From positions 1 to 64,000 of IMG/VR virus record IMGVR_UViG_2802429224_000004: a DNA stretch of 64,000 nucleotides. One strand, 5' to 3'. The notes under the pieces are model-generated. The model ran no database searches and was not told the DNA's origin. It saw only the letters and a list, made by a program, of their open reading frames with translations. Position 1 is the stretch's first letter; the number at the start of each line of letters is the position of its first letter. The stretch is from a virus (lineage: Duplodnaviria; Heunggongvirae; Uroviricota; Caudoviricetes). Shown piece after piece: positions 10,777 through 38,356 of the stretch. The translations under genes and the position numbers were made by a program.

Positions 10777-10793
10777 ATTGCTCTAATTAATTT
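10777..10793. promoter_or_regulatory. C1 repressor operator-like 17-mer upstream of ssb
   Basis: ATTGCTCTAATTAATTT, 16/17 match to remembered P1 C1 operator consensus ATTGCTCTAATAAATTT. Confidence 0.5.
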
Positions 10794-28568: not shown

Positions 28569-28924
28569 AGCACCACGTCCTGTGTGATAGTTATATCCCT
28601 GATACGAATGGATATTTTCAACTTATCAAAAGCATCTCCCTCGGCTACTGACAAGCCAGAAATCGGTATGTCAGGTAAATCTACCGTCAGTTTTTGCAAC
28701 AGCATTGCCTCAACCGCAATTTGAACATGCGACAAGTTGGTCGGTTCGTGTTTAAACTGCGGTAAAACATTGCCCCATGACGGATCTCCGTATACCTCAC
28801 CCTGATAAGTGTTTAGCCACTCATATAAACGAGCGCCCCAGGCCTCCTCCTGGGACTCATACGTTTTTACGCCGGATAACTCCAGCGTCAGTAAAGGATC
28901 AATTTCGTTATTGTTGGCCATCAA
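28565..28924 (-). CDS. small baseplate wedge-like protein
   Basis: 119 aa between sit and baseplate genes; translationally coupled. Confidence 0.35.
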   Translation of the reverse strand: MMANNNEIDPLLTLELSGVKTYESQEEAWGARLYEWLNTYQGEVYGDPSWGNVLPQFKHEPTNLSHVQIAVEAMLLQKLTVDLPDIPISGLSVAEGDAFDKLKISIRIRDITITQDVVL

Positions 28925-31900
28925 TCAACTCTCGCGTAGTCATTCATCAACGGATCATCAATTGACAGTGGCACCGTGCGCATAACGCCCGGTTGAGGCG
29001 TGCTGACCTTTACGACAGTTCCCTGGCCTTTCGCCGAGTCTTTAGTGTGCTCTTCAATCCTGGCAAGCAATGAGGTCATCTGCGCAAACAGCCGCTTCGT
29101 TTCACCATCAAGTGAAACGGTATTATCAGCCAACTGCATTGTCGGCTTGGCACCGGAGCCGCCAAGGTCACTAATAACCTGTCCGTCTATCTGCATACGA
29201 CCGGTTGGTTGCTGCAAATCGTTGGCGGCAGTCGTCACCTGGGACGTGGAGGCTGGTTCAGGCGCATTATTTTTCCGCATCCCCGGCGAGTTGCGGAGTT
29301 TATCGAATAGTCCATCAATCCCCATTTGTGCGCCGAGTTGGTCAAAGTAACTTGAGTTGCTGGCCACCGGACGCGCCTCTTCAACTGGCATCGGAGTATC
29401 AACATACACATTGCCAGCTGCTGTTGCGGTCCCCTTCCCTCGTGCACGTTCTTCGAGCGTTCCCTGAACGACTTCCCGACGCATACCCCGGCCATTCATG
29501 AATTTGTTGACCAGATCGTTAACGCCAACAGCATTGCCAATTTTGTCTACCAGACCGCCTTTCTCAAACGGGCTATCACCAGGGGTAAACGCTAGGCCAG
29601 TAGACTGATCGATAACGGCGTTATCAGGTATCTTTTCGTAAATTGCTGGTGCGCTATGATCTACCTTAGAGCCATAAACGGCACCATTATTGAGCATCTG
29701 CTGATACCCTCTGACACGAGTAACATATTCGCCGGTACCTGCGACTACTCTCCCCTTATCAACATGCCCCATACCAGCATGATAGGCAGCTATTGCACGA
29801 CCCTGATCACCGTTATAACGGTTCATCAGCATACTTAGGTATCTGGCGGCACCATCAGCTGCTTTTCGTGTATCCATGGCATCAGCATCGCTGAGTCCAA
29901 GATCCTCCCTTGTACCTTTAGTGATCTGAAAAGCCCCAAGGGCAGATGAAAGTTTGTTCCCGTTTTTGTCTACTGGATTTCCAGTTCTCTGGCCTGCACT
30001 AGACTCTGCGGATGCAACTGCTGACAGAATCCCTTTTTCAAGCCCATACTTACGTTCAAGCTCATCAAAATAATCGGCATTGTCAGAAATCCATTGGTAT
30101 CCGGCAGCATTTAATTTTGGCAAAGAAACATCCTTGCCATTGTTAAATCGACGTTTATCTATCTCATATGCACTTAATGCTTCCTCCTTGCCTGTAGCAG
30201 GCTGGCCCAAGGCAGCATCAATTGTTTGTGCTGCTTTATTTCCTGTTTCTACGGCATTTGCATTACTAATCTGATTAGCAGTTTCTTTAACTGTTTTATT
30301 GCTATCTTTCGCCATATCCAGGGCCGCATTTATCACGCGGGCAGCAATATTAGTCTGTTTGGCATCGGATTCAGTTTTAGAATCAGATGTCCCCTGATGG
30401 CTATTAACCGGAGTTTTTAACTCCGGAGTGATTTCTTTCGCATTAGCCTCGCCGATCAGATTGGGTATTTTTGATACAATCATTGCCGCAGGGGTATTTT
30501 TAACGGCATCAACCGCTGCATCTAATGCTTTACCTGGTAAATTTTTAACCCCATCCCAAATATTACCAGCCGCCTCCTTAATGTGTTTCCCTGGGTTCTT
30601 AATGAAATCAATTGCACTATCAATTGCATCACTGAAAACCTGTTTCAGGTTATCGACAGTAAAGAAGTCTTTGATGGCATCCAGCTTTTCAAGCAGCTTA
30701 TTAGATGTATCGCTAAACCATGCTGAAACAGCATCACCAATCTTTGCTGTGTAATCATCGAACTTGGTAGAAATGGTGTCGCCAAGGTTAGAAATATATG
30801 TTTCTAAGTTGGTAATCCCACTATCTATGGCCTGGGCAATACTTTCCGTCGAAAATGATTGCAACATATTGCCGATATCCTCAAATCCAAGTGATTTGAG
30901 AACCTCACCAATGGCGCTGCTAATACCAGATACCAGTCCCCCCATATCAAGAACATTAGCTAACGTATAAGCGGCTTTTTGCTGGAATGATGGATCTTGT
31001 CCTGATTTAAGCCCAAACGCTCGACGTTGCGCTTCTGTATCATTCCAACCGGTTACCGCATCATAAATACCTCCAGCCACTGTGCCGACTAGGGGAATTG
31101 CGCGTAACGCCCCTTTACCAACTGCCTTTAATCCAAGTTTACCTGCTGCCCGGGCAGCCAAATCTCCGCCTTCATGGGCGAGAGTCTTCTTGCCACCACC
31201 GCGTAGCATTCCTACAAGTTTCTTTGCCCCCAGAGCGCCAAAAGCGAGTGCTCCAGCTTTTTTCAGCATGCCACGCCTCATTAACAACGACGCGACGCCA
31301 CCGGCCCCCTTCCCTAACAGGCTAAATAATTTGGACAGCAAGCCGCCCTTCTTTTTCCCAGTGTTTTTGGCTATCTGATCAAGGGCGCTGAGAATCTTGT
31401 CATTGCCCTCTTTAATTTCGCTGGTCTGATCCTGAAGTTCCTGAACCGTCCGTTTTTGGGTGTTAACCTGAACGACATCGGCACTATTTTGCGATTTACG
31501 CCTAAAAAAACCTTTTCTACGGCTGTTATCGTCATTGCCACGAATCACATCGGCAATAGACTTTCTGGCACCATTAAGCGATCCACCAACTTCTTTTGAT
31601 ATCCCGCCAAGCTCCTTCCCTGCGGCCCACAATGGACCAGCAACGGCATAACCTAACGCATCGACGGCACGAGTCTCTGAAGGGTTACCTATGCCTTCAG
31701 CTACTTTTGACAGTTTTTTTAATAAACCTGATTCAGCATTTAGACGCTCATCATCCTCTTTGCGCCTGGCCTTTTCAGCACGTTCAGCACGGGCATCTTC
31801 CGCTGCGGCCTTACTCCCTGACTTTCCAATAAAACGACCACGCGCATCGCGTTGGTTTTGGCTTTTTTGCGCACCGCCTTTTTGACCGAACATTTCGCGA

Positions 31901-32295
31901 GCGTGTTCGGCTGCTTCAGTCCGTTGCGCCTTTACATCTTCTGTTATAGCCTTCTTGCGTCGTTTTTTACCCTTTCGCGTAGTTGATTTGGCCTGCTGTT
32001 CCTGTTGAGCAACATCCTCCTGAACTACACGAGAAACGTCCCCTAAATTAAGCCGTTTCATTGCGTCAACAATAGGGTCTACTGATGGCGCTTTGGCCAC
32101 AAAGTCAGGCCGGGAATTTTCGATTGTGCGATTTAATGCCGACACGCTGCGAGAGACAGGATCAACAGTAGCAACTCGCCCACCTTTCAAATCTTCAACA
32201 GCTTCCCGAATACCAGCAAGCTCTTCCAGCTCTTTTGCGCTGGCGGTTTCAACTGTCCTTATAACATCGTCAATGTTGGCGTTTTTTCGTTCCAT
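28921..32295 (-). CDS. sit: Sit-like tail tape-measure protein with lytic transglycosylase domain
   Basis: 1124 aa; Gly/Ala/Lys-rich extended N-terminal part; SLT-like motifs (SAVASAESSAGQ ... GAFQITKGT ... AAYHAGMG). Confidence 0.75.
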   Translation of the reverse strand: MERKNANIDDVIRTVETASAKELEELAGIREAVEDLKGGRVATVDPVSRSVSALNRTIENSRPDFVAKAPSVDPIVDAMKRLNLGDVSRVVQEDVAQQEQQAKSTTRKGKKRRKKAITEDVKAQRTEAAEHAREMFGQKGGAQKSQNQRDARGRFIGKSGSKAAAEDARAERAEKARRKEDDERLNAESGLLKKLSKVAEGIGNPSETRAVDALGYAVAGPLWAAGKELGGISKEVGGSLNGARKSIADVIRGNDDNSRRKGFFRRKSQNSADVVQVNTQKRTVQELQDQTSEIKEGNDKILSALDQIAKNTGKKKGGLLSKLFSLLGKGAGGVASLLMRRGMLKKAGALAFGALGAKKLVGMLRGGGKKTLAHEGGDLAARAAGKLGLKAVGKGALRAIPLVGTVAGGIYDAVTGWNDTEAQRRAFGLKSGQDPSFQQKAAYTLANVLDMGGLVSGISSAIGEVLKSLGFEDIGNMLQSFSTESIAQAIDSGITNLETYISNLGDTISTKFDDYTAKIGDAVSAWFSDTSNKLLEKLDAIKDFFTVDNLKQVFSDAIDSAIDFIKNPGKHIKEAAGNIWDGVKNLPGKALDAAVDAVKNTPAAMIVSKIPNLIGEANAKEITPELKTPVNSHQGTSDSKTESDAKQTNIAARVINAALDMAKDSNKTVKETANQISNANAVETGNKAAQTIDAALGQPATGKEEALSAYEIDKRRFNNGKDVSLPKLNAAGYQWISDNADYFDELERKYGLEKGILSAVASAESSAGQRTGNPVDKNGNKLSSALGAFQITKGTREDLGLSDADAMDTRKAADGAARYLSMLMNRYNGDQGRAIAAYHAGMGHVDKGRVVAGTGEYVTRVRGYQQMLNNGAVYGSKVDHSAPAIYEKIPDNAVIDQSTGLAFTPGDSPFEKGGLVDKIGNAVGVNDLVNKFMNGRGMRREVVQGTLEERARGKGTATAAGNVYVDTPMPVEEARPVASNSSYFDQLGAQMGIDGLFDKLRNSPGMRKNNAPEPASTSQVTTAANDLQQPTGRMQIDGQVISDLGGSGAKPTMQLADNTVSLDGETKRLFAQMTSLLARIEEHTKDSAKGQGTVVKVSTPQPGVMRTVPLSIDDPLMNDYARVD

Positions 32296-33894: not shown

Positions 33895-34485
<591 letters not shown>

Positions 34486-34614
34486 TTAACCGATTCTACG
34501 AGTTGTCATTTGTTACCGGTCAGTCTACACATTTCAGATGCTGCGTTAAAAAATTCAAGTACTTCAAGTAGCACATCGTCATCAACACCCAGCCCCAAGA
34601 TACGGTGATAAAAT

Positions 34615-35592
34615 TCAAGCCTTAAGAGGCTTTGTGTATGTTCGTGTAATCCAACCAGTAATAAACTCATCCCCTGATTTAACCTGCACGTAAAGCCATT
34701 GACGATCTTTCTTATCTAAAATAGCAACAATTGTGTTTTTGCCAATGCATTCAATCACTTCACTATTTAAAGAAGGGCTGACATGTAATCTTACGTTATC
34801 ACCAGTTATAAACCTAAAACCATTGAGATCTTCCCACTTAATTTCTGTGTTTTCTTTAATTAATTTTTGTTTTGAAATTGGTGCATCCTCATATAGGGAT
34901 ACAGAATATGATTCTGTCTTGTGTATTTGCGATAAGATTTGTTCTTTTGCATAATCAGCAATGGCACCAAGCAACACTTCTGTTAAAAACCACATAATAA
35001 TAAACTGAAGCGGGTGAGGGAGCGCCTTAAATGAGTCAATAAACGTCGAACTGGATTTATTTAATCCTTTGTCTTGAACATCACTTTCGTTGTGAGATGT
35101 TTCAATAGCACCTTCAACATAAGCCTGTGCAATTGATGAAAGACCTTGCTCCATTGTTCTATTAAATAGAGATGTCTTTTTTTCAATATATTGATTTTCT
35201 TGTTTTTTTATAATATCTTTTGTTAAATCATCGTAAGTTATATATTCTCGTAAATTTTTAAGTGTAGCCTCCATACTTTCCAAGCCAGCTTGTTTATTAA
35301 AAACTACTATCTGGCTTTGTAATGACAAAGATTTTTCCGACTGTTTCTGAAAATTTTCAACATACTTACGGAAAAGATGGTTTATCTCATTCGTTTTTAG
35401 TGATGTGTTAAATTTTTTTTGAAGATAATTATCTAATATTTTTTGAGATGTTTTTTCCAAAACTATATGCAATAGATTTTGTTGCAAAAAATCAAGCGGG
35501 GTAGTAAGACCACCCAAACTCACTGATTTTGCTAAATTACTTAACTCGTTATATTTGGAGCTATTAATACTTGCCATCTTATTCGCCATCAT
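34615..35592 (-). CDS. membrane protein with C-terminal SH3b-like domain (accessory)
   Basis: 325 aa; very AT-rich coding sequence; coiled-coil-like N-terminal region, one TM helix (FIIMWFLTEVLLGAIADYA), C-terminal SH3b-like fold (VRLHVSPSLNSEVIECIGKNTIVAILDKKDRQWLYVQVKSGDEFITGWITRTY); 14-nt overlap with upstream gene. Confidence 0.5.
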   Translation of the reverse strand: MMANKMASINSSKYNELSNLAKSVSLGGLTTPLDFLQQNLLHIVLEKTSQKILDNYLQKKFNTSLKTNEINHLFRKYVENFQKQSEKSLSLQSQIVVFNKQAGLESMEATLKNLREYITYDDLTKDIIKKQENQYIEKKTSLFNRTMEQGLSSIAQAYVEGAIETSHNESDVQDKGLNKSSSTFIDSFKALPHPLQFIIMWFLTEVLLGAIADYAKEQILSQIHKTESYSVSLYEDAPISKQKLIKENTEIKWEDLNGFRFITGDNVRLHVSPSLNSEVIECIGKNTIVAILDKKDRQWLYVQVKSGDEFITGWITRTYTKPLKA

Positions 35593-36085
35593 ATTGTTTT
35601 AAACACCCGTCTTTTTTAGCTTCCTTGTAAATACTTGAAATACCATTAAGAGAGAATGATGTGATTCGACGCGATCCGATATATACATCCATGTTTTTTT
35701 CTTTTGTGGCTGACGCTGACTTCCAAAAAGAATACCATTCCCTACGATTTGGAGCAGTGTTTTGCGTACCAATATTAAAGCTATCCGGACCAACAATTAA
35801 GGTAATTACATCAGCTTTACGAGAAATTGTGTCGCGTGTAGAAAAATCAGCATTCTCTTTCCCTCCACTTACATACAAATTTCTTCCAGCGATATGATCT
35901 TCGGAACCTTCCCTTGCTCCAGCATCACAAGAAAAGTTAATTGTATAACCATCGTCATTGGTTGCAGAGATTTCTCTCCACCCTTGCTCACCTCCTACCG
36001 TCCAAACGGTAGAACCTGCCATTGCTGATAATGGCAGAAAAGAGGACATTAATAAAAAGCTATACAATGACTTATACAATTTCAT
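35579..36085 (-). CDS. secreted/periplasmic protein (accessory)
   Basis: 168 aa; N-terminal signal peptide MKLYKSLYSFLLMSSFLPLSAMA|GS. Confidence 0.5.
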   Translation of the reverse strand: MKLYKSLYSFLLMSSFLPLSAMAGSTVWTVGGEQGWREISATNDDGYTINFSCDAGAREGSEDHIAGRNLYVSGGKENADFSTRDTISRKADVITLIVGPDSFNIGTQNTAPNRREWYSFWKSASATKEKNMDVYIGSRRITSFSLNGISSIYKEAKKDGCLKQYDGE

Positions 36086-36173
36086 ATTTTTATCCTTTTG
36101 TTTTTAGATATTATAGGCATAGTCCATATTGTTAGATCCACTATGCCCAGAGAATTTAATATTATTTATTAAA

Positions 36174-36665
36174 TTATGGAGCTACACCCGGCCCCCTAGC
36201 TCGTTCTTCAAGCGTACCCTGCACGTTTTGATGGCGCATTCCCGGGGCGTTTCTGATTGAATCAATGCCATTTCTTCCAACGTCTTCTTTATTAACGGCA
36301 TTGCTCGCCACCAGAACGCCCCAGCTAGGGATAGCAAAATCAGGAGCGGTTTCGCATGCCTTTACCATATAATCGAAAGTGCTTCGATTGATCTCATTTG
36401 CGTCTGGATTTAACAGGCGAGAATATTGATATTTAGCATTTTCGTTGGTTGCGACTTTATACAGTTCTTGCTGCACCATCGCTTCAGAAAGTTTAAGACG
36501 TTTCATGTCTGAAAGTAACTTCTTGCGCATGGATTCGTCTTGGCTGACAGCAAAGCCGTAAACGTGCCCAAGGTATTTCGTGTAGTCGGTACAAATCGCC
36601 TTTACACTTGATGCTGCATTAACAGTCCCAGCCATAAATAATAACGGTAGTAATAGTTTTCTCAT
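36174..36665 (-). CDS. secreted/periplasmic protein with Sit-like C-terminal peptide (accessory)
   Basis: 163 aa; signal peptide MRKLLLPLLFMAGTVNA|AS; last ~25 aa (NAPGMRHQNVQGTLEERARGPG) and their DNA are homologous to an internal segment of sit (~29430-29520); gaggt RBS. Confidence 0.5.
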   Translation of the reverse strand: MRKLLLPLLFMAGTVNAASSVKAICTDYTKYLGHVYGFAVSQDESMRKKLLSDMKRLKLSEAMVQQELYKVATNENAKYQYSRLLNPDANEINRSTFDYMVKACETAPDFAIPSWGVLVASNAVNKEDVGRNGIDSIRNAPGMRHQNVQGTLEERARGPGVAP

Positions 36666-36761
36666 TATAACCTCACCTGCCTTTTAACTCATTTAGGGTA
36701 CATATTTTCGCCTTTAAAAAAAAGAGGTTATTAGATCCAGTTGTGTATTTATTAAACAGTA

Positions 36762-36778
36762 AGTGCTCTAATAAATTT
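36762..36778. promoter_or_regulatory. C1 repressor operator (Op51-like) of immI
   Basis: AGTGCTCTAATAAATTT, 16/17 to consensus; between accessory operon and icd/ant. Confidence 0.6.
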
Positions 36779-36959
36779 GTATTTTTAAGTCGCGAATGCT
36801 ATCTTTTCGCATCATATTGACCTTTTAATCGTTCAGGCTTATAGTTCCCGCCGTCGTAGCAAATTCTGCGACCGGGTTTAGCAGCCTGAATACTTACGCG
36901 GACAACCGCAGATTTCCGATATTGCGGTATTTTTGTGTCCGTAAACCACGTTACGCCCG

Positions 36960-37085
36960 AATTATGGTGGGGCGTGATGGGGAGGCTTCGGCCTGCTGGT
37001 TTCGTAAGTGCCAGTCTGCTAACCCCGTCACGTCCTGCCACCTGTTTAGCAGCGGGTCGCAGGTTGTTTATCAACTTACGAGGCC
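36960..37085 (+). ncRNA. candidate c4-like antisense RNA region (boundaries undetermined)
   Basis: Non-coding, structured region between the operator and icd containing stem-loops (aggcttcggcct UUCG tetraloop; ctgctaa...ttagcag); called by position relative to icd/ant only. Confidence 0.2.
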
Positions 37086-37091
37086 GTAACT

Positions 37092-37313
37092 ATGGTTAAT
37101 GCCAATCCTTGCGCACGCCCAGAATTCATCTGGCGTTTCTATTCCTGTAAAAAACACCACTATCACTTCGTTATCGCAGCAACAGAAGACGAAGCACGCT
37201 CTCAATTGCCTGACGGCCCCTGCATTTTTACTGCCCGTTTTTCAACTAACTCGCGCAATTCACTTAGTTACTGGAACCTCCCCTTCTCTGCCGACGTTCA
37301 GGGGGGTTTATGA
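37092..37313 (+). CDS. icd: Icd-like small protein
   Basis: 73-aa ORF whose stop overlaps the ant start (ATGA); position and length as remembered for P1 icd. Confidence 0.45.
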   Translation: MVNANPCARPEFIWRFYSCKKHHYHFVIAATEDEARSQLPDGPCIFTARFSTNSRNSLSYWNLPFSADVQGGL

Positions 37314-38356
37314 AAAAACCTCTCGTCACCCGTAATGAAATAGCCGAAGCGATCGCCCTGCATACAACCTGTATGCCGACACGGGAGATCCCCGGCGCAA
37401 TTGCCAACTATTTCATGATAACCAGGCGTTTTTATACCCGAACAGATAAGGCTGTGATCAACAGGCTACTGATAGCCGAGATCAGGGATTATTTGATTAA
37501 ACAAGGACGTCTACGTTACGCAACGGTGGCAGCAGAAATGAGAAAGGAGGCGCGCAGAATGACCGGTAATAATTTGAATGTTGAAAAACCAGCACCTGTT
37601 GCTTCAGCTACGCCATCACCAACTGTGAATGTTATCTCCAACACTGGAGACACAATCGACAGCCAGACACTGTTAAAGATGGTCAATGAAGCGCGTAAGT
37701 TATGTGGGGAACCAGAGGTTCGGAACAACAAATTCATCGAAAAAATACTCGACGAATTAGAAGGTGAGGACGGTTACACAAAAAGTGCAACCGTGCCGCC
37801 AGGTGGCGGTACGCCTATGGTTGTCATAACCATGACCTACAAACAAGCCCTGCGAGTCGCCGCGCGCGAGTCAAAAGCGGTCCGCCGTTCGCTGATCGAC
37901 AAACTGGAAGAATTGCAGCAGGCAAACTCCCCTACCCCATCGATCCCCCAAACATTACCAGAAGCCCTACGCCTGGCTGCCGAGTTAGCAGAACAGAAAA
38001 TGCAGTTGGAACAACAGCTGGTGGCCGCAGCCCCTAAAGTCGATTTTGCCGACCGGGTATCAGTGGCCAATGGAATCCTGATCGGGAACTTTGCAAAGGT
38101 CGTTGGACTTAAGCAAAACGCCCTTTTCTCATGGTTGCGCCAGAACGGCATTCTCATGGCTTTTGGAGCGCGCAAAAACGTACCGCGCCAACAGTACATC
38201 AACGCCGGGTATTTCACGGTGAAAGAAGTGGTGCTGGATGATGAAAATGGCTACCAGATACGGCTGACGCCCCAATTAACGGGTAAAGGCCAGCAGTGGT
38301 TAACTCGCAAGCTACTTGATGCTGGTTTGTTAAAACCAGTGGCGTCCTTGTCTTAA
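37310..38356 (+). CDS. ant: antirepressor Ant
   Basis: 348 aa; C-terminal ~130 aa form the antirepressor domain shared with the kilA product (PQTLPEALRLAAELAEQK ... TGKGQQWL ... LLDAG). Confidence 0.7.
   Translation: MKKPLVTRNEIAEAIALHTTCMPTREIPGAIANYFMITRRFYTRTDKAVINRLLIAEIRDYLIKQGRLRYATVAAEMRKEARRMTGNNLNVEKPAPVASATPSPTVNVISNTGDTIDSQTLLKMVNEARKLCGEPEVRNNKFIEKILDELEGEDGYTKSATVPPGGGTPMVVITMTYKQALRVAARESKAVRRSLIDKLEELQQANSPTPSIPQTLPEALRLAAELAEQKMQLEQQLVAAAPKVDFADRVSVANGILIGNFAKVVGLKQNALFSWLRQNGILMAFGARKNVPRQQYINAGYFTVKEVVLDDENGYQIRLTPQLTGKGQQWLTRKLLDAGLLKPVASLS

Follow-up and report, generated by a model that had tools for sequence, protein, structure and literature searches.

The 64,000-nucleotide stretch of viral DNA analysed here (the window; positions 1 to 64,000 of IMG/VR record IMGVR_UViG_2802429224_000004) belongs to a P1-like (Punavirus) phage-plasmid and carries, at 34615-36665, three minus-strand open reading frames (ORFs), bounded by late promoter LPsit on the left and C1 operator Oc4 on the right. 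They are best explained as one allele of an exchangeable accessory cassette in the sim hotspot, which reaches from LPsit to Oc4, and as a mosaic of three horizontally acquired genes. The first of them is P1 simA in its full-length form, and its product ends in a peptide that resembles part of Sit, the tape-measure-like protein encoded in the late tail operon. The function of the cassette we read tentatively as superinfection exclusion at the genome-injection step, that is, as a periplasmic block of P1-like phages.

The cassette as an allele of the sim hotspot

The three ORFs are real genes and not chance ones, given that the ratio of nonsynonymous to synonymous substitution rates (dN/dS) lies well below 1 in gene 1 (0.03-0.05), in gene 2 (0.07-0.23) and in the SH3 domain of gene 3; purifying selection acts on all three. 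Their DNA is AT-rich: the GC content is 0.29-0.33 over 34650-35700, compared with about 0.47-0.49 in the flanks and about 0.48 in the whole window, and at third codon positions (GC3) it is 0.26 in gene 3, 0.29 in gene 2 and 0.42 in gene 1 versus 0.41-0.53 in neighbouring genes. Base composition and predicted localization together support a foreign cassette whose three products are all targeted to the envelope. Both flanking gene sets are arranged as in P1, with the cassette in the position of simC-simB-simA. An earlier, sequence-only reading of this DNA had described three minus-strand ORFs of 163, 168 and 325 amino acids (aa), the last two overlapping by 14 nt, had placed them where P1 carries sim and had called them foreign on account of their AT-richness; all of this was borne out. 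Gene 3 has an alternative start at ATG 35577, one base past the TAA of gene 2, which would amount to stop-start coupling.

Mosaic junctions were mapped by pairwise alignment against P1, P7, Ro157c2YLVW and plasmid pLR-21-1_3. On the left, homology to P1, P7 and Ro157c2YLVW ends at 34514-34522, just beyond LPsit. On the right, it is back at 36526 for P1 (codon ~46 of gene 1), at 36186 for Ro157c2YLVW (codon 160 of gene 1) and at 36764, at Oc4, for P7. The sole difference from pLR-21-1_3 lies at 35348-35578, where ~81 codons replace ~145 codons of a 389-aa gene 3 allele. At least 34 PLSDB plasmids hold ~83% of the cassette, namely all except these first ~81 codons of gene 3, and related variants are found in many IMG/VR contigs. 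The sim region itself has been published as one among eight regions of P1-like phage-plasmids that are variable and low in GC (PMC9603915), and the sim genes of P1 proved dispensable in a CRISPRi screen (PMC10695390). Thus the cassette is not undescribed, as had been proposed from the sequence: the hotspot is published, and the genes are common in databases yet uncharacterised.

At least five types of content occupy the slot, and most of the products have export signals or membrane helices: the simA stump with simB and simC in P1; a DUF5384 protein with a lipoprotein in the P7 type (P7 Upf50.0/50.5); a SimA-domain protein (215-261 aa) with a YfjT-like protein (157-158 aa); a SimA-domain protein (163-172 aa) with a YfjT-like protein (168 aa) and an SH3 protein (325-394 aa), as in the window; and a 116-aa protein with multiple transmembrane (TM) segments, a YfjT-like protein (158 aa) and either an SH3 protein or an opposite-strand DUF4760 membrane protein. 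The pair of SimA-domain and YfjT genes occurs without an SH3 gene in phage Ro157c2YLVW and many contigs (more than 20 loci), the SH3 gene is solitary in Citrobacter elements, and YfjT genes stand alone in jumbo phages and in the K-12 prophage CP4-57. That is, the cassette consists of stacked, separable modules and is not one three-component machine, the integrated system that the sequence-only reading had assumed.

The third slot position in some P1-like contigs (L037, 6514-7515 on the minus strand; L039; L042) is taken by an opposite-strand, 333-aa multi-TM DUF4760 protein (Pfam E 1e-13) and contains no SH3 gene. The protein is absent from PADLOC.

Gene 1 and its Sit-like tail

Protein 1 comprises a signal peptide (aa 1-17; site MRKLLLPLLFMAGTVNA/AS, VNA/A), a helical core (aa ~20-125) and a flexible tail; C25 and C104 are invariant in the family (29 homologues). 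The signal peptides of proteins 1 and 2 were judged by inspection from a basic n-region, a hydrophobic core (19-residue Kyte-Doolittle mean, KD19, ~1.35) and an AXA site, in agreement with the earlier reading, and an L-x-x-C lipobox was seen in neither protein on inspection. Both fit the type of a Sec-exported soluble protein and would presumably reside in the periplasm. To P1 SimA (52 aa), protein 1 is 92.5% identical over 40 aa (BLASTP). P1 SimA consists of the first 40 residues of gene 1 and then of junk, a P1-specific insertion with simB and simC setting in from codon ~46 (P1 AF234172, locus L003, 3898-4056, versus window 36526-36665). On these alignments, gene 1 is P1 simA at full length, of which the 52-aa SimA of P1 represents the N-terminal stump. 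The gene matches PHROG 3933 (E 8.5e-114), some homologues carry the RefSeq name 'simA domain protein', and the homologues, 163-246 aa long, are found on ~90 kb P1-like elements of Escherichia, Salmonella, Klebsiella and Cronobacter.

A 9-codon N-terminal extension (MSYKAGEVI-) is annotated for P1 SimA and for many homologues; in the window, a stop codon closes it (36666-36700, minus strand), and translation of all these proteins probably begins at MRKLLL, before which lies AGGTGAGG. A PTP-like phytase assignment (PF14566) for protein 1 was rejected: it scored 26.7 bits against a cut-off of 27 over profile positions 48-132 of 158, and the C-x5-R loop is absent (CTDYTKY, CETAPDF).

In a comparison of cassette proteins with neighbouring genes, Sit proteins of ~1100 aa had scored against protein 1. 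The C-terminal tail of protein 1 matches aa 921-957 of the Sit protein encoded in the same window (BLASTP E 7e-8, 21/41 residues identical; E 1.7e-6 when searched against all window ORFs), and this is the sole cross-match of any cassette protein to window ORFs of at least 100 aa. Profile comparison by hhalign agreed (SimA-domain family versus Sit C-termini, probability 93%, E 3e-7), and a PHROG match consistent with Sit aligned residues 129-162 of protein 1 with positions 929-963 of a 1130-position profile. In Sit, the motif follows the SLT transglycosylase domain (aa 742-847), and the tail also aligns with a shorter repeat of it at aa 997-1010. The DNA encoding the shared core is identical at 46 of 66 positions, and 10 of the 16 identical residues are specified by different codons; the likeness has therefore been kept by selection on the peptide and does not stem from recent duplication or gene conversion.

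The Sit segment that spans the motif (aa 911-964, 54 aa) is 100% identical in P1, P7, RCS47 and other E. coli P1-type phages and 73-85% identical in SJ46 and JK004, and its matches in the phage collection were limited to P1-like phages. In SimA-domain proteins, the motif is kept down to ~52% identity, the divergent tails having either the long form GMR-x3-V-x-G-T/S-L-x-x-R-A or a short one, GMRxQPS..., that resembles Sit repeat 2. Two copies of the GMR motif, ~68 residues apart, are present in E. coli-type Sit; Salmonella-type Sit (L018, L020) has the first alone. Protein 1 lacks the last ~55 residues of the 215-224-aa forms and ends three residues past the core motif. The motif sits in a low-confidence part of the protein 1 model, and the tail is probably flexible. 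No further mimicry was found when the SH3 family and the other cassette proteins were searched against the window proteins.

Three homologues (P0013, P0014, P0022) have frameshifted tails in which the Sit-like motif is destroyed; these may be natural loss-of-function alleles or assembly errors.

Proteins 2 and 3

The sequence-only reading could not place the three proteins in a known family. Gene 1 has turned out to be full-length simA; gene 2 belongs to the YfjT family (PF27224), and gene 3 is PHROG 7086. For gene 2, the assignment follows from a 98%-identical cluster representative, P0001, that carries PF27224. Protein 2 is similar to K-12 YfjT (BLASTP E 1e-4) and to gp315 of Serratia phage Moabite (E 9e-8), and to intermediates at up to 1e-35. 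It has a signal peptide of aa 1-23 (site MKLYKSLYSFLLMSSFLPLSAMA/GS, AMA/G). Members of the family are exported, 145-168 aa long and share an invariant Cys in an early strand, a C-terminal invariant Cys and a WYxFW-type motif; W28, C53, W117 and C161 are invariant over 18 of them. The family is small: an exhaustive HMMER search with protein 2 returned 22 cluster representatives at E <= 0.001 among 1.84 billion. The AlphaFold2 (AF2) model of protein 2 is weak (mean predicted local distance difference test, pLDDT, 59) and predicts two helices.

YfjT-family genes occur in the sim slot, in the cryptic prophage CP4-57 of K-12, in Cronobacter phage JK004 and in lytic jumbo phages of Serratia and Klebsiella. 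In CP4-57 (L053, 6446-7616), ypjK (small TM protein), yfjS (lipoprotein) and yfjT follow one another within a few kb of abpA and rnlAB and form a prophage-borne envelope trio, parallel to the sim-slot cassettes. The jumbo phages have genomes of 270-307 kb, and in Moabite the gene is gp315 (L051, 3489-3932). The Moabite genome record notes an HHpred match (~92%) of gp315 to the Neisseria lysozyme inhibitor ACP, which was not reproduced here. A lysozyme-inhibitor assignment for YfjT was rejected, since hhalign comparisons with E. coli MliC and with ACP (sequence verified against 5MY7) were not significant; the MliC motifs SxSGAxY and YxxxTKG are absent from YfjT proteins. A literature search returned no functional work on YfjT.

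Protein 3 has the architecture described earlier, with a coiled-coil-like N-region, one TM helix and an SH3-like C-terminus. Its match to SH3_3 (PF08239) scored 26.4 bits, just under the gathering cut-off of 27, and covered 52 of 54 profile positions. Precomputed annotation assigns PF08239.18 to almost every homologue, and the RefSeq name is SH3 domain-containing. Throughout the family, the proteins start with a helical, coiled-coil-like N-region that varies in sequence and in length (192-348 aa); after it come a single hydrophobic helix, a linker and a strongly conserved SH3_3-type domain. The rate of evolution falls along the protein: mean pairwise identity is 37% in the N-region (dN/dS 0.34-0.71), 43% in the TM segment and 59% in the linker (dN/dS 0.16-0.46), and 85% in the SH3 domain (dN/dS 0-0.2). 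The fast-evolving N-region is as expected for a specificity domain in conflict. Its matches in the Protein Data Bank (PDB) were limited to coiled-coil proteins, and the SH3 region had no PDB relative by sequence. Neither PLSDB nor 5,426 complete E. coli genomes contained a match to the N-terminal segment found in the window; proteins 99% and 80% identical to it (P0036, P0037) came from read-archive assemblies alone.

Two clues to the topology of protein 3 are opposed. The absence of a signal peptide and the 192-aa N-region favour an N-in/C-out orientation with a periplasmic SH3 domain, whereas K/R counts are higher on the C-side of the helix (60 vs 32 over 28 sequences). A 'PG-anchored' periplasmic SH3 domain, as put forward from the sequence (PG, peptidoglycan), was therefore overstated.

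The distant SH3 relatives in Citrobacter (L056, 4001-5446; L057, 4001-5053; on contigs of 84-100 kb) are solitary, divergently transcribed genes. Their surroundings contain HNH, HTH and DarB-like helicase genes, whereas YfjT and SimA-domain genes are missing there. Some of them have long tandem repeats in the N-region (…STIADSVSLSERITKLAQG…).

Searches for known domains and systems

Scans of the three proteins with Pfam, NCBIfam, PHROGs and PADLOC yielded PHROGs of unknown function, the borderline SH3_3 match and the borderline phytase match alone. Neither an enzymatic motif nor an effector domain (pore-forming, nuclease, NTPase) appeared in these family scans, so that the earlier view of proteins free of enzymatic motifs and of known defence families held. 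Sequence and profile searches of the PDB with the three proteins returned coiled-coil noise alone. The proteins of the alternative cassettes and P1 SimB and SimC were likewise without a PADLOC match, and a review of superinfection exclusion contained nothing on Sim.

Regulatory sites and neighbouring genes

The features of the locus are collected in Table 1. Since a promoter and terminator scan found no more sites than in shuffled sequence, we base the regulatory sites on their agreement with the P1 annotation. The predicted PsimA hexamers, once aligned, match that annotation exactly, 5 nt from the C1 operator. Instead of acting as a terminator, the hairpin between genes 1 and 2 might serve in processing or stabilisation.

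The genes downstream of the cassette are pmgC (33895-34461), tub, pmgB and sit; on its upstream side, and on the opposite strand, Oc4 is followed by the a1b1 targets (36839-36892), the C4 antisense RNA (36960-37045) and icd with ant1 (37310-38356). The C1 operator consensus, with at most one mismatch, has further matches at 10777, 38910, 53865 and 57387 (plus strand); with at most three mismatches, there are 7 sites versus 0.36 expected. By their sequence, these sites fit a complete P1-type immunity circuit across the window.

Table 1. Features of the cassette and of related sites in the window
Feature	Position	Strand	Remarks
Gene 1	36174..36665	-	163 aa; exported SimA-domain protein (predicted)
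Gene 2	35579..36085	-	168 aa; exported YfjT-family protein (predicted)
Gene 3	34615..35592	-	325 aa; variable helical N-region, one hydrophobic helix, C-terminal SH3_3 (borderline match)
Sit-like tail of protein 1	36180..36302	-	aa 122-162, NAVNKEDVGRNGIDSIRNAPGMRHQNVQGTLEERARGPGVA; probably disordered C-terminal end
sit	28921..32295	-	1124 aa; P1 annotation: structural injection transglycosylase, putative tape measure
Sit motif, copy 1	29425..29535	-	aa 921-957, NAVGVNDLVNKFMNGRGMRREVVQGTLEERARGKGTA; just downstream of the SLT domain
Sit motif, copy 2	29266..29307	-	aa 997-1010, FDKLRNSPGMRKNN; shorter copy
Allele-specific start of gene 3	35348..35592	-	first ~81 codons; differs from pLR-21-1_3
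Hydrophobic (TM) segment of protein 3	34948..35016	-	aa 193-215; Kyte-Doolittle 19-residue mean 1.76
Putative SH3_3 domain of protein 3	34636..34800	-	aa 265-319; Pfam E 8e-6
C1 operator Oc4	36762..36778	+	AGTGCTCTAATAAATTT; right-hand landmark of the hotspot
Promoter-like site, predicted PsimA of P1	36730..36756	-	-35 TTTAAT, -10 TCTAAT
Late promoter LPsit	34493..34511	-	-10 TAGAAT, -22 box; left-hand boundary, conserved
Hairpin in the 88-nt gene 1/gene 2 spacer	36114..36149	-	10 bp, no U-tract; dG -15.7 kcal/mol, z -3.7 (RNA fold)
Short GC-poor hairpin, terminator-like	34617..34632	-	overlaps the end of gene 3; consensus match alone

Proposed function and alternatives

The slot, the export signals, the dispensability of the locus and the interchangeable envelope proteins it receives point to a function in lysogenic conversion or in exclusion. 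The Sit motif in protein 1 is a concrete added reason to consider a block of injection, since it points specifically to that step, and the YfjT relatives in other phage settings (the prophage gene beside abpA/rnlAB, the jumbo phages) count for exclusion as well. P1 Sim was reportedly described as a periplasmic exclusion protein by Kliem & Dreiseikelmann in 1989 and Maillou & Dreiseikelmann in 1990, and exclusion by P1 sim is said to have been shown in this older literature with multicopy clones. Of the readings considered, superinfection exclusion is the one that we favour, though tentatively.

Within this reading, the Sit-mimicking peptide suggests, without proving, a decoy that blocks injection by related phages. 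Expression in the lysogen, the periplasmic location, the anti-phage effect and the decoy itself are steps that we infer from the genes. The cassette would be transcribed from the conserved sim promoter region. Protein 1 would be exported by Sec and fold into a disulphide-bonded helical domain that leaves the flexible tail exposed. When P1 infects, it would eject Sit into the periplasm, and the tail, as a copy of the Sit motif (..GMR-x3-VQGTLEERARG..), would act as decoy or competitor by occupying the partner of that motif, either a domain of Sit or a host periplasmic or inner-membrane factor. With the partner occupied, the injection conduit would be left incomplete. Protein 2, presumably periplasmic and disulphide-bonded, and protein 3, as a membrane-anchored SH3 protein, would be additional, independently acting envelope modules. 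Among the mechanisms for protein 1, we rank decoy or competitor first because Sit is tape-measure-like and such tape-measure or ejection proteins are the targets of TP-J34 Ltp, HK97 gp15 and P22 SieA (PMC10883804) and of the SNIPE nuclease (PMC13190303). As a specific mechanism, a periplasmic decoy that presents a Sit peptide copy and so blocks P1-like genome injection is doubtful.

Several observations weigh against exclusion at the injection step. The predicted PsimA abuts the C1 operator and may therefore be silent in lysogens. The tail and its cognate Sit do not co-vary cleanly: tails of the E. coli type are as similar to Salmonella-type Sit as to their own, and Salmonella-type tails follow Sit repeat 2, which is absent from their own Sit. 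Just as well, a chaperone, a protease or peptidoglycan might bind to the motif in both proteins, with no role in exclusion, and protein 1 in its truncated form could be impaired. The three genes do not always co-occur in a co-inheritance test and are not one obligate unit. The three proteins had no match in PADLOC-DB 2.0 bar one at chance level (E 0.038), and they showed no likeness to solved or viral predicted structures. In addition, compared by BLASTP with P1 SimB (111 aa) and SimC (264 aa), they gave nothing better than E 1.9. Whether the products are simply conserved P1 Sim proteins, an outcome for which the sequence-only reading had allowed, thus has a divided answer: gene 1 is simA, but none of the three proteins resembles SimB or SimC.

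A rival reading takes the genes for independent lysogenic-conversion morons whose benefit to the host envelope has nothing to do with phage entry. They might confer stress tolerance or shield peptidoglycan against lysozymes, lytic transglycosylases, colicins and type VI effectors, in which case the YfjT protein would inhibit muramidases in the periplasm and the SH3 protein would bind the wall. We consider morons of this kind somewhat unlikely.

Alternatively, the cassette might serve the phage's own lytic cycle by restraining the activity of Sit or of the endolysin in the periplasm, by setting lysis timing or by protecting infected cells from lysis-from-without by progeny. Its place directly upstream of the late tail operon with sit, the motif that Sit and protein 1 have in common and the YfjT relatives in strictly lytic jumbo phages would suit such a role, and the P1 Sim phenotype, reportedly seen with multicopy clones, fits action at raised copy number. 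However, the cassette lies upstream of LPsit and not behind it, the locus is dispensable and is swapped for unrelated genes in P1, P7 and others with viability kept, and the Sec signal of protein 1 would take it out of the cytoplasm, where Sit assembly takes place. A lytic-cycle role is improbable on this balance.

Abortive infection or toxin-immunity, with the SH3 protein as an infection-triggered, membrane-damaging effector and the exported proteins as sensors or immunity factors, could draw on the single-pass helix and fast-evolving N-region of protein 3, on the predicted translational coupling of genes 2 and 3 and on the multi-TM DUF4760 protein of another slot allele. Yet the family scans found no effector domain (pore-forming, nuclease, NTPase or other). 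In Citrobacter elements, the SH3 gene has no partner genes, an arrangement at odds with a toxin that depends on an immunity factor, and the SimA-domain and YfjT pair exists without it; an effector system of this type is decidedly improbable. Least probable is a decaying mosaic remnant with no current function: protein 1 is C-terminally shorter than the 215-224-aa forms, the gene 3 N-terminus has been replaced, P1 keeps a 52-aa stump of gene 1 alone and some homologues have frameshifted tails, but all three ORFs are intact within AT-rich DNA, dN/dS stays well below 1 in genes 1 and 2 and the SH3 domain, and the shortened protein 1 still ends just past a complete core motif.

How P1 DNA passes the periplasm and inner membrane, and how Sim blocks this passage, are to our knowledge unsettled questions, on which an exported protein of a prophage with a conserved Sit peptide in it would be a direct handle. 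P1-like phage-plasmids are common carriers of resistance genes in Enterobacteriaceae, and the allele in the sim hotspot may decide which of them co-infect or displace each other. Three points appear to be new, namely the recognition of P1 simA as what is left of a longer, conserved gene, the Sit-derived motif in that gene and its pairing with YfjT and SH3 modules; for the YfjT family, including the K-12 gene yfjT, the analysis offers a first hypothesis. If the decoy mechanism is true, protein 1 would be the first exclusion protein that works by mimicry of an injection-machinery motif, and Sit residues ~920-1010 would be the segment that engages a host or phage partner in P1 DNA entry. Full-length SimA-domain proteins would then represent the ancestral sim function, with the YfjT family and the SH3 proteins as further injection-stage exclusion modules. 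Should the cassette have no anti-phage effect, the sim slot would be a general landing pad for envelope morons.

Comparison with known systems

P1 simABC, a superimmunity or superinfection-exclusion system in which SimC is the processed, periplasmic Sim protein, is the nearest one. It shares with the cassette the slot, the orientation and the promoter region next to Oc4, and both are non-essential and low in GC, with exported products. However, SimB and SimC have no detectable similarity to the cassette proteins, the P1 SimA stump has neither the helical domain nor the Sit-like tail, and exclusion is reported for P1 sim, whereas for the cassette it is proposed.

Ltp, HK97 gp15, P22 SieA and SNIPE are envelope-located, prophage- or host-encoded and block DNA entry at conduit proteins, and protein 1 is tied to the tape-measure-like Sit by its motif. 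They differ in having no similarity to it in sequence or fold, and for none of them has a copy of a peptide from its target been reported, while the link proposed for the cassette is sequence mimicry.

K-12 YfjT resembles gene 2 in belonging to PF27224 and in lying in a short envelope-protein operon on a mobile element. The two proteins are ~27% identical, and the partners of K-12 YfjT are a small TM protein and a lipoprotein instead of a SimA-domain and an SH3 protein. With MliC/PliC and Neisseria ACP, which is beta-rich, protein 2 has in common that it is small, predicted to be exported and probably disulphide-bonded; YfjT proteins are, in contrast, ~50 residues longer and have two predicted helices. 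Conceptually, T4 Spackle, the periplasmic inhibitor of the tail lysozyme gp5, is alike in that a small exported phage protein could neutralise an incoming muralytic component.

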